This document shows, in pieces, positions 56,840-58,487 of a DNA stretch of 64,000 nt. Below the pieces are notes generated by a model. That model did not search any database and was not told the DNA's origin. It saw only the letters and a program-made list of their open reading frames with translations. Location: IMG/VR virus record IMGVR_UViG_3300000756_000009, positions 1 to 64,000 of that record; one strand, 5' to 3'. The number at the start of each line of letters is the position of its first letter. The stretch's first letter is position 1. The DNA comes from a virus (Duplodnaviria; Caudoviricetes). The position numbers and the translations under genes were made by a program.

Positions 56840-57748
56840 TTAATCTTTGACTAGATATATATCTTGTACTAATCTAGAGTGTGTTACATCTTCATCTATT
56901 TGAATGGCATTTTCATTCCATTCTTGCATAGTAATGTTTAAACTTGCATCTTGAGTTGTATCAAATTCAGATAAATCTAAGTCATCATTCATTGTAATGT
57001 TCATCTTTGATAATACTCTGGCTGTCATGAAATCATGAAAGTTTTGACTATCAGATAACCAATCTCTTGGATGGGCCTTTTTCAATGCATGTGTAACGTG
57101 GTTATAGAATGTCCAAGCATTTTCTTGATCACATTGGTAATCATATGATGGTTTCTCTAACTCAGCTTTAACACAAGACATTTGTGCAGCATCAAGGATA
57201 TCTTCATTGATATAAAGCCTTCCAGCAATCTCAGCCTGCTCTTGTAATGATAAATTAGTATTTCTCATTGCATCTCTATCATTAAGGATACGTTTGTAAT
57301 ACTTTTCACCATTCTTGATCTGATTAGAAATTTGCATTCTAATATCATGATCAGCAGAACCAGTATGCTTTCTTCTAAAGTTCATCATGTCACCGGCCAC
57401 CATACCATTATGGCAAACCATAACATATGCACCTATTGCACATTGAAAACGTGTGCTCTTATCATAAGAGTTTGTCCAGGCAAACATCATCCCCAACTCT
57501 TTTTCCTCCATAATGGTGGGATCAACAGTGTTGATTGGTAAGATATGATATATGCCTTGTGCTACATTGGCATCCATATTTGCTCTATATAATTCCTTTT
57601 GAATAATAAAACCGCTATCTGCTAGCAGTTGTTTTGTGTTATCTATCACTTGTTTATGTGATATAACTGTATAACTTTTACCATGATTTGGTAAGGGTGC
57701 GTTTTCTAGGTAATTCCTAGTTGTTTCTTTTGGTTTATTATAACCCAT
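56840..57748 (-). CDS. DUF932-like protein
   Basis: 302 aa. YTVISH, NSYDKS...GAYVMVCHNGM, RKHTG and AWTFYNHVT match the DUF932 pattern. Confidence 0.8.
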   Translation of the reverse strand: MGYNKPKETTRNYLENAPLPNHGKSYTVISHKQVIDNTKQLLADSGFIIQKELYRANMDANVAQGIYHILPINTVDPTIMEEKELGMMFAWTNSYDKSTRFQCAIGAYVMVCHNGMVAGDMMNFRRKHTGSADHDIRMQISNQIKNGEKYYKRILNDRDAMRNTNLSLQEQAEIAGRLYINEDILDAAQMSCVKAELEKPSYDYQCDQENAWTFYNHVTHALKKAHPRDWLSDSQNFHDFMTARVLSKMNITMNDDLDLSEFDTTQDASLNITMQEWNENAIQIDEDVTHSRLVQDIYLVKD

Positions 57749-57808: not shown

Positions 57809-57976
57809 TTAATTATTTACATTTAGTGCATTTGTGAGTGTATAGGCATTAGAAGTACCACTTCCTAAAAAGGTATTTGTACCATTTGTAGTACGAGTAC
57901 CAAGTAATGAATTTCCAAAGATAACTCCGGTGTTGCCAGTAGTAATACTAGCATTGGAAAACACAGGAGTACTTAA
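57809..57976 (-). other. -1 frame extension (55 codons, no ATG) of the 66-aa gene, reachable by a programmed frameshift
   Basis: Slippery heptamer A_AAT_TTT (57982-57976) directly before the TAA, 6-nt spacer, and stem CTCCTGTGTT/AACACCGGAG. The open -1 frame encodes LSTPVFSNASITTGNTGVIFGNSLLGTRTTNGTNTFLGSGTSNAYTLTNALNVNN. Confidence 0.65.
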
Positions 57977-58173
57977 AAATTTCTGATTACAATTTGTACA
58001 TTGTCAGGATTTGTGGCATATTCTTCAGGAATTTCTCTTGTGATTTTAAATACAAGGTCTTTTTCTGATTTAGCTAATACTGTGGTTGGTTCAATGATGA
58101 TTTTTGAATCTACATAAACACCATCTTTGTCATTTTCATGCAGAATTACTGCATATTGGAATAAATTTTTCAT
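57973..58173 (-). CDS. 66-aa hypothetical protein ending at a slippery site
   Basis: Ends ...GTA ATC AGA AAT TTT TAA. Confidence 0.8.
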   Translation of the reverse strand: MKNLFQYAVILHENDKDGVYVDSKIIIEPTTVLAKSEKDLVFKITREIPEEYATNPDNVQIVIRNF

Positions 58174-58184
58174 TGTTATTTGGT

Positions 58185-58487
58185 TTAATTGTTTTTTACA
58201 AATTGTCCATTAACCATTTTACCGGTTCTCTTACTAATTACTTTGTATGCTGACTCAAGGCATTCCTCCAAGGTTAATCCTTGCATTTTACATTGAATAA
58301 TTAATGTAACTACAATGTCCCCAATAGCATCAATGATCTCAGGACGATTGTCCTCTCTAATAGCAGTGTATAATTCATTAACTTCTTCCTGTGTTTTATC
58401 ACATTGTCTAAGTGTTGTGGCATTAGCTAAAATACCTTTTTCTTCTGCCCACGCTTCTACTGCGCATTCTAATTCAAAATAATCCAT
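58185..58487 (-). CDS. MazG-like nucleotide pyrophosphohydrolase
   Basis: 100 aa. KTQEEVNEL and DAIGDIVVTL are the acidic MazG motifs. Confidence 0.85.
   Translation of the reverse strand: MDYFELECAVEAWAEEKGILANATTLRQCDKTQEEVNELYTAIREDNRPEIIDAIGDIVVTLIIQCKMQGLTLEECLESAYKVISKRTGKMVNGQFVKNN

Follow-up and report, generated by a model that had tools for sequence, protein, structure and literature searches.

The window, i.e. the whole stretch of 64,000 nucleotides analysed in this study, corresponds to the first 64 kb of a viral contig from IMG/VR, which is 81 kb in length and has a G+C content of about 31%. On its minus strand, 11 nt after a gene for a MazG-like pyrophosphatase, starts an ORF encoding a protein of 66 aa (Table 1). 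A dNMP kinase gene is located further upstream and a DUF932 gene downstream of this ORF. The first-pass annotation had placed the locus in a nucleotide-metabolism context, which agrees with the MazG and dNMP kinase genes found upstream. It had furthermore proposed that the ORF is the short product of a programmed -1 ribosomal frameshift. The slippery heptamer A_AAT_TTT noticed there among the last codons is present in the 0 frame (57982-57976), and the -1 frame is open for 55 codons without ATG (57976-57812), exactly as described. This frame begins with L S T P V F and contains a single GTG at codon 5, and the +1 frame is closed after 8 codons. The predicted long isoform comprises 121 aa.

Two further features of the window were noted. 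Very large ORFs (2040, 1326, 814, 840, 1063, 4532 and 1926 aa) occupy the plus strand at positions 7055-44865. Four terminator-like hairpins (57610-57720 and 58269-58283) are found within 700 nt around the locus, compared to 0.3 expected from shuffled sequences; three of them are plus-strand hairpins in antisense orientation to the DUF932 and MazG genes.

Table 1. Coordinates of the features at the locus (positions in the window)
Feature	Position	Strand	Remarks
0-frame ORF, short isoform	57973..58173	minus	66 aa; ends AGA AAT TTT TAA; stop TAA 57975-57973
Slippery heptamer A_AAT_TTT (X_XXY_YYZ, 0 frame)	57976..57982	minus	abuts the 0-frame stop
Spacer TAAGT	57971..57975	minus	5 nt, stop codon included; between heptamer and first S1 base pair
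-1 frame extension (predicted)	57809..57976	minus	55 sense codons 57976-57812; stop 57811-57809; S/T/N/G-rich
Stem S1	57970-57961 with 57933-57924	minus	9/10 pairs; element 57924..57970; RNAfold, RNAalifold
5' internal loop	57960-57954	minus	7 nt; enclosed by S1
Inner hairpin S2	57953-57946 with 57941-57934, loop 57945-57942	minus	8 bp; inside S1
Pseudoknot helix S3	loop 57960-57954 (TTTCCAA) with 57918-57912 (TTGGAAA)	minus	exact complement; element 57912..57960
S3 linker	57923-57919	minus	5 nt between S1 and the S3 3' strand

The slip site in relatives

A protein-guided scan of IMG/VR yielded 15 viral loci with 70-95% identity, and a metagenome scan yielded 52 further loci with identities down to 49%. 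Another 17 loci, every one of the same family, were detected by a codon-neutral pattern scan with the back-translated sequence V-E-I-x-x-R-P-F-stop, in which the third positions of Pro and Phe and the Arg codon were left free. After removal of duplicates from the 15, 52 and 17 loci, 62 distinct junctions of the RNF/RPF type were obtained. The KKF clade (L059-L065) stands outside this set and is discussed below.

All 62 distinct junctions carry T_TTY immediately before a TAA, TAG or TGA stop. As a check, the first-pass annotation had suggested to ask whether homologues keep an open -1 frame and, in front of the stop, a slippery heptamer; the open frame and the T_TTY slip site are kept in 62/62 junctions. 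The open -1 frame comprises 30-109 codons, while the +1 frame is short in nearly all junctions. The heptamer is a perfect X_XXY_YYZ (A_AAT_TTT or C_CCT_TTY) in 58 of the 62; the remaining four read N_CCT_TTT, in which the T_TTT tetramer is kept.

AGA or CGA precedes AAT TTT in 42/42 distinct junctions of the RNF type, and CGC precedes CCT TTT in 4/4 RPF-type junctions of the metagenome set. Neither CGA nor CGC is used even once among the 51 other Arg codons of these genes. In the loci from the neutral scan Pro is encoded by CCT throughout (17/17), with a perfect C_CCT_TTT or C_CCT_TTC in 13 loci and N_CCT_TTT in the other 4. The heptamer switches as a unit, A_AAT_TTT following Arg AGA/CGA and C_CCT_TTY following Arg CGC; judged from these sequences, it is selected as a heptamer.

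Both A_AAU_UUU and C_CCU_UUY fall into the class H_HH.U_UU.Y, one of those for which frameshifting is most efficient in E. coli (Sharma et al. 2014, PMC4066793). U_UU.Y tetramers are shift-prone as well if a pseudoknot is located downstream (Sharma et al. 2014, PMC4066793). These two E. coli classes cover every heptamer variant found here. Re-pairing in the P site from AAU to AAA leaves a mismatch at the third base, which counts against the frameshift interpretation. The lineages with N_CCT_TTT (4/17 RPF-type loci) may rely on single-tRNA slippage on U_UUU.

A protein search returned 136 homologue clusters (50% identity) of the 66-aa domain. Since 98 of the 104 clusters with a length of 85 aa or less end in Phe, and 78 of the 104 in R-P-F, the slip cassette is probably near-universal in the family, for part of which the DNA was seen. 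No cultured-phage homologue was detected among the 50,697 phage records searched by tblastn: the window protein and P0036 had no match there, and the sole match of P0093 was an unannotated 735-kb uncultured phage (LR756501.1; L086:1489-2267). The homologue of this phage ends with V-R-P-F, encoded by CGC CCT TTT TAA including the stop. In the -1 frame of this homologue, an ORF of about 190 codons encodes a long collagen-like G-x-y repeat followed by a stretch ending in S-S-T-L-N-I-N-N, which resembles the end of the window tail. The same slip site opens a far larger, fibre-like extension in this huge phage.

The downstream RNA element

For the region behind the heptamer, an extended stem-loop after a spacer of 6 nt had been described in the first-pass annotation. 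The stem that was given there (57969-57960 with 57934-57925, 9 of 10 pairs) is real and belongs to a stable fold. For the 86-nt segment 57985-57900 the predicted folding energy is -23 kcal/mol (z = -3.84), a stability that none of 200 dinucleotide shuffles reached. The stem lies within the classic distance from the slip site, but one extra pair (A57970-T57924) reduces the spacer to 5 nt. Similarly, stem and inner hairpin are present as described, but the element as a whole is a covarying three-helix pseudoknot, the helix S3 of which had been overlooked. It is a pseudoknot because the loop of S1 (57960-57954) pairs with the 3' flank (57918-57912).

In most relatives S1 begins 5 nt after the heptamer. 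A perfect stem of at least 5 bp starting 4-8 nt after the heptamer was found in 58/62 junctions, with 50 distinct arm sequences, and the relatives exhibit a mean MFE z-score of -2.46. RNAalifold independently predicts S1 and S2. S3 occurs in nine distinct compensated variants, its 3' strand being located 1-9 nt beyond S1. The mean score for S3 complementarity is 13.1, compared to 9.2 +/- 0.36 with shuffled 3' flanks.

Covariation was tested in a MAFFT alignment of 18 sequences for 25 pairs over S1, S2 and S3, using 500 shuffles and slid-partner controls. Thereby, 86.3% of the cells were paired, compared to 66% in shuffled and 31-46% in slid alignments. The observed values were reached by 0 of 500 shuffles, a significance that is overstated by the kinship of the sequences. 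Double changes were detected in 23 of the 25 pairs (S1 8/10, S2 8/8, S3 7/7), and for S3 alone 83% of the cells of the alignment were paired. The protein encoded over S3 differs by lineage (F-S-N with F-G-N, W-S with R-P, and others). Because the encoded protein varies between lineages in this way, the S3 pairing is selected at the RNA level.

The pseudoknot strand directly abuts the 5' arm of S1, and the 3' linker comprises only 1-9 nt. A linker this short argues against the coaxial stacking of a classical H-type pseudoknot. It might be that S3 folds back along S1, or that it forms a second barrier once S1 has been opened.

The short protein, its tail and alternative explanations

The AlphaFold2 model of the N-domain (pLDDT 91.3) consists of a beta-hairpin, a helix and a final strand, i.e. 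a small alpha/beta fold. No significant match was obtained for this domain with Pfam and PHROGs, with a profile search of the PDB by sequence, or with Foldseek against the PDB and BFVD. The ESM Atlas search returned only unnamed viral clusters; YdfE_N (0.75-0.76 in the ESM Atlas) was below a useful level and was not recovered by hmmscan. The best hits of the wide structure search VIA (Z of about 6 to eL20, PurS and PaaB) reflect a generic small alpha/beta arrangement.

Residues 1-45 of the domain also have 4-11 matches per protein in the giant proteins P0003, P0022, P0031, P0043 and P0083 (1100-5700 aa). These matches fall on the hairpin F-x-Y-T-V-x-x-x-D-x-D-G-V of repeated Ig-like adhesin domains in a Big_5 context. 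The pattern F-x-Y-T-V-x-x-x-D-x-D-G is a common one in adhesin Ig-like repeats, and the matches to P0003, P0022 and P0031 were set aside as uninformative. The similarity is probably due to a convergent pattern rather than to homology.

The genes flanking the family gene vary between phages. MazG, dNMP kinase, RecA, dUTPase, thioredoxin and an MmcB-like nuclease are recurrent, and these neighbours point to a DNA-metabolism or early module. At four loci (L006, L028, L030, L041) the family gene heads a rightward unit diverging from leftward genes; the gene may therefore often be located directly behind a promoter, in an early position.

Over 46 distinct junctions the -1 frame contains no stop in 2753 codons; in the same stretches the 0 frame has 210 and the +1 frame 347. 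The tails are rich in S, T, N and G, the composition that had been pointed out for the tail in the window in the first-pass annotation, and are otherwise variable in sequence. In nearly all of them the stop is preceded, at a distance of a few residues, by N-x-Y-S/T-L-T-x-A, a motif that is relaxed to S-Y/F-x-A/L-A/S/T in distant lineages. Its codons vary, Leu being encoded by five codons, Ser by TCN as well as AGY and Asn by both codons. That the motif is kept while synonymous codons turn over indicates a constraint at the protein level. Amino-acid conservation together with synonymous turnover extends 100 nt and more past the RNA structure. Within the 81-kb contig the motif has no other occurrence, so that it is not a docking tag shared within the phage. 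The motif bears some likeness to tmRNA degradation tags, on which no argument given here rests.

In six homologues (P0173, P0015, P0011, P0137, P0023 and P0026, available as protein sequences) a single reading frame covers the domain together with an S/T-rich tail that carries the Y-T-L-T motif, and P0173 was found on 17 contigs. In P0173 and P0015 the junction reads K-F-L, the product of one extra T in the T run, which suggests that a former frameshift may have been hard-wired in these proteins. In the model of the natural fusion P0173, the domain has a pLDDT near 90 and residues 79-123 have values below 50, and the tail is accordingly predicted to be disordered. Low tail pLDDT and terminal motif together describe a long form built from a folded domain, a presumably disordered leash and a short conserved peptide. 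No support was found for the possibly polymerising tail put forward in the first-pass annotation; disorder is predicted for the tail, and a short conserved motif is located at its end.

The KKF clade, a sister clade within the family known from metagenome loci, exhibits the opposite condition. Here the junction reads AAA AAA TTC TAA, and both the slippery heptamer and the tail are absent. The gene that follows starts with an ATG of its own, and an indel of 1 nt decides whether it is in the +1 or the -1 frame in a given member. At least one clade can do without the long form. Taken together, this loss and the one-frame fusions indicate that heptamer and tail come and go together, and the fusions further indicate that domain and tail form one polypeptide where no shift is needed.

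This last point bears on the possibility that the tail is a separate small gene, translated from a non-ATG start of its own or by termination and reinitiation after the 66-aa ORF. The GTG at codon 5 in the window could serve as such a start, and an ATG, GTG or TTG is present among the first 15 codons in 16/46 junctions. In the other 30, however, there is no start codon of any kind, and ATG is found in only 2/46. Reinitiation, furthermore, predicts neither the covariation between the third base of the Arg codon and the codon following it nor a structure fixed 5 nt past the heptamer. Considering also that the one-frame fusions place domain and tail in a single polypeptide, we regard a separate gene as very unlikely.

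Alternatively, slippage could occur during transcription. If the RNA polymerase added a U in the T5 run of AAT TTT TAA, part of the mRNAs would encode the fusion, and one extra T would lead to exactly the same protein. A T5 run is short for RNA polymerase slippage, and L071 and L077, which read CCC TTT C followed by TAG, have only T3, yet tail and stem are kept. The selection on the first X of the heptamer and the covarying 3' pseudoknot at ribosomal spacing would both be left unexplained by slippage of the polymerase, for which we see very little probability.

A non-coding role of the region, with the hairpin as terminator or regulatory RNA and the open frame as chance or a decaying remnant, would fit the position of the structure directly after a stop codon in an AT-rich genome with many hairpins. 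However, no terminator-like site was called at the position of the element on the minus strand, and the Rfam search of the element gave no match. The complete lack of stops in the -1 frame, compared to hundreds in the other frames, and the conservation of amino acids with synonymous turnover far beyond the structure make this explanation highly improbable. An indel splitting a single gene of 121 aa, conceivable in a metagenome assembly with its error-prone homopolymer runs, is effectively refuted: dozens of assemblies that were made independently, from different samples and with diverged sequences, show the same split.

Proposed mechanism and comparison with known frameshift systems

The claim of a -1 frameshift with two isoforms is supported by the conserved heptamer, the open -1 frame and the structure at fixed spacing in relatives. 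We put the probability that a genuine programmed -1 ribosomal frameshift yields two proteins from one mRNA at roughly 0.88; the slippage itself and its efficiency, which could be low, we infer from sequence comparison. According to this interpretation, a ribosome with AAU in the P site and UUU in the A site would meet the base of S1 five nt downstream. During this pause both tRNAs would move back by one base and re-pair with AAA UUU. Without slippage, translation would end at once at the adjacent UAA and the 66-aa domain would be released, whereas slipped ribosomes would read UUA (Leu) and 54 more codons, resulting in the protein of 121 aa. In this product the folded domain of the short form would be followed by about 45 aa of disordered, S/T/N/G-rich linker and by the conserved C-terminal motif.

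The proposed mechanism is that of a textbook -1 frameshift as known from bacteria and phages; the gene belongs neither to the family of the G/GT chaperones nor to that of the capsid proteins 10A/10B. No earlier report of a frameshift in this family was found in the literature searched, which is not a proof of absence.

One of the closest arrangements is that of the tail assembly chaperone G/GT, known from phage lambda and in corresponding form from other long-tailed phages (Levin 1993 and Xu 2004, as cited in PMC5009743). In these systems, too, a -1 shift takes place shortly before a short ORF ends and leads to a minor, C-terminally extended isoform sharing the N-domain, the arrangement is kept across many phages despite sequence divergence, and its presumed purpose is a fixed ratio of the two forms. 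In contrast to G/GT, the gene studied here is found among MazG, dNMP kinase, RecA and dUTPase and not between tail tube and tape measure. Homology is absent as well, as no Pfam or PHROG match connects the family with the G/T chaperones. The heptamer is of the type H_HH.U_UU.Y instead of G_GGA_AAG, and the slip site abuts the stop and is followed by a strong covarying pseudoknot. Finally, the part added here is a tail predicted to be disordered, whereas in the chaperones it is a folded domain.

In gene 10A/10B of T7 and T3 the shift occurs with a U_UUY codon in the A site, only a few codons before the gene ends. This -1 frameshift adds a C-terminal extension to a fraction of the capsid protein molecules (PMC5009743). 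A -1 shift at an A-site U_UUY near the gene end leading to such an extension is common to both systems. They differ in that T7 and T3 use G_GUU_UUC and long-range stimulators for a capsid protein, whereas here a local pseudoknot is located behind the gene of a small non-structural protein.

The -1 frameshift between orfA and orfB of the IS3/IS911 family is stimulated by a 3' pseudoknot or branched structure at a distance of 5-7 nt (PMC4066793, PMC5009743). The likeness lies in the bacterial-type -1 shift stimulated by a structure of this kind. The insertion sequences fuse parts of a transposase, mostly at A_AAA_AAG, whereas the cargo here is unrelated, and the loop of S1 holds the extra hairpin, which separates the two strands of the pseudoknot.

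With the classical H-type pseudoknot the element shares the pairing of the S1 loop with sequence 3' of S1. Frameshift pseudoknots of coronaviruses consist of three helices, one of them a pairing between a loop and downstream sequence, and the same applies here. In coronaviruses the third stem lies between the 3' arms of S1 and S2, whereas in our element it is found inside the S1 loop and the pseudoknot strand follows directly after the 5' arm of S1. The likeness to the three-stemmed coronavirus pseudoknots, a class reviewed in PMC11262651, is a resemblance only and does not reflect homology.

Regarding the function, the long form would be a sub-stoichiometric, peptide-tethered version of the short form in a DNA-metabolism or early module. 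As a working model we consider a pair of proteins with a set ratio, in which the minor long form would tether the domain to a partner via the terminal motif. A more specific reading, tentative and in our estimation rather unlikely, is that the frameshift sets the ratio of a two-form adaptor of DNA metabolism. Here the bare domain would be opposed to a leashed N-x-Y-S/T-L-T-x-A docking peptide that recruits or titrates a host or phage factor for replication, recombination or proteolysis.

In every member of this large, purely metagenomic family, automated gene calling overlooks the predicted product of 121 aa, and the annotation consequently lacks one isoform. Almost all curated phage frameshifts are found in genes for tail chaperones or capsid proteins, whereas the one described here would extend a small non-structural protein whose gene is located beside genes for nucleotide metabolism and recombination. 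The system probably works on Bacteroidota-type ribosomes, on which, to our knowledge, frameshifting has been little studied. For recoding studies, the family represents a natural mutagenesis series. Its two heptamers are interchangeable and come with a matching change of the codon in front of them, the stop is always found immediately behind the slip site, and the three-helix pseudoknot occurs in dozens of compensated versions; in addition, there are lineages with an apparently hard-wired fusion and lineages with loss. If the adaptor reading should be true, this would be a stoichiometry device similar to G/GT outside of virion assembly, spread over at least 100 clusters (50% identity) and reaching up to a 735-kb huge phage with a collagen-like extension.
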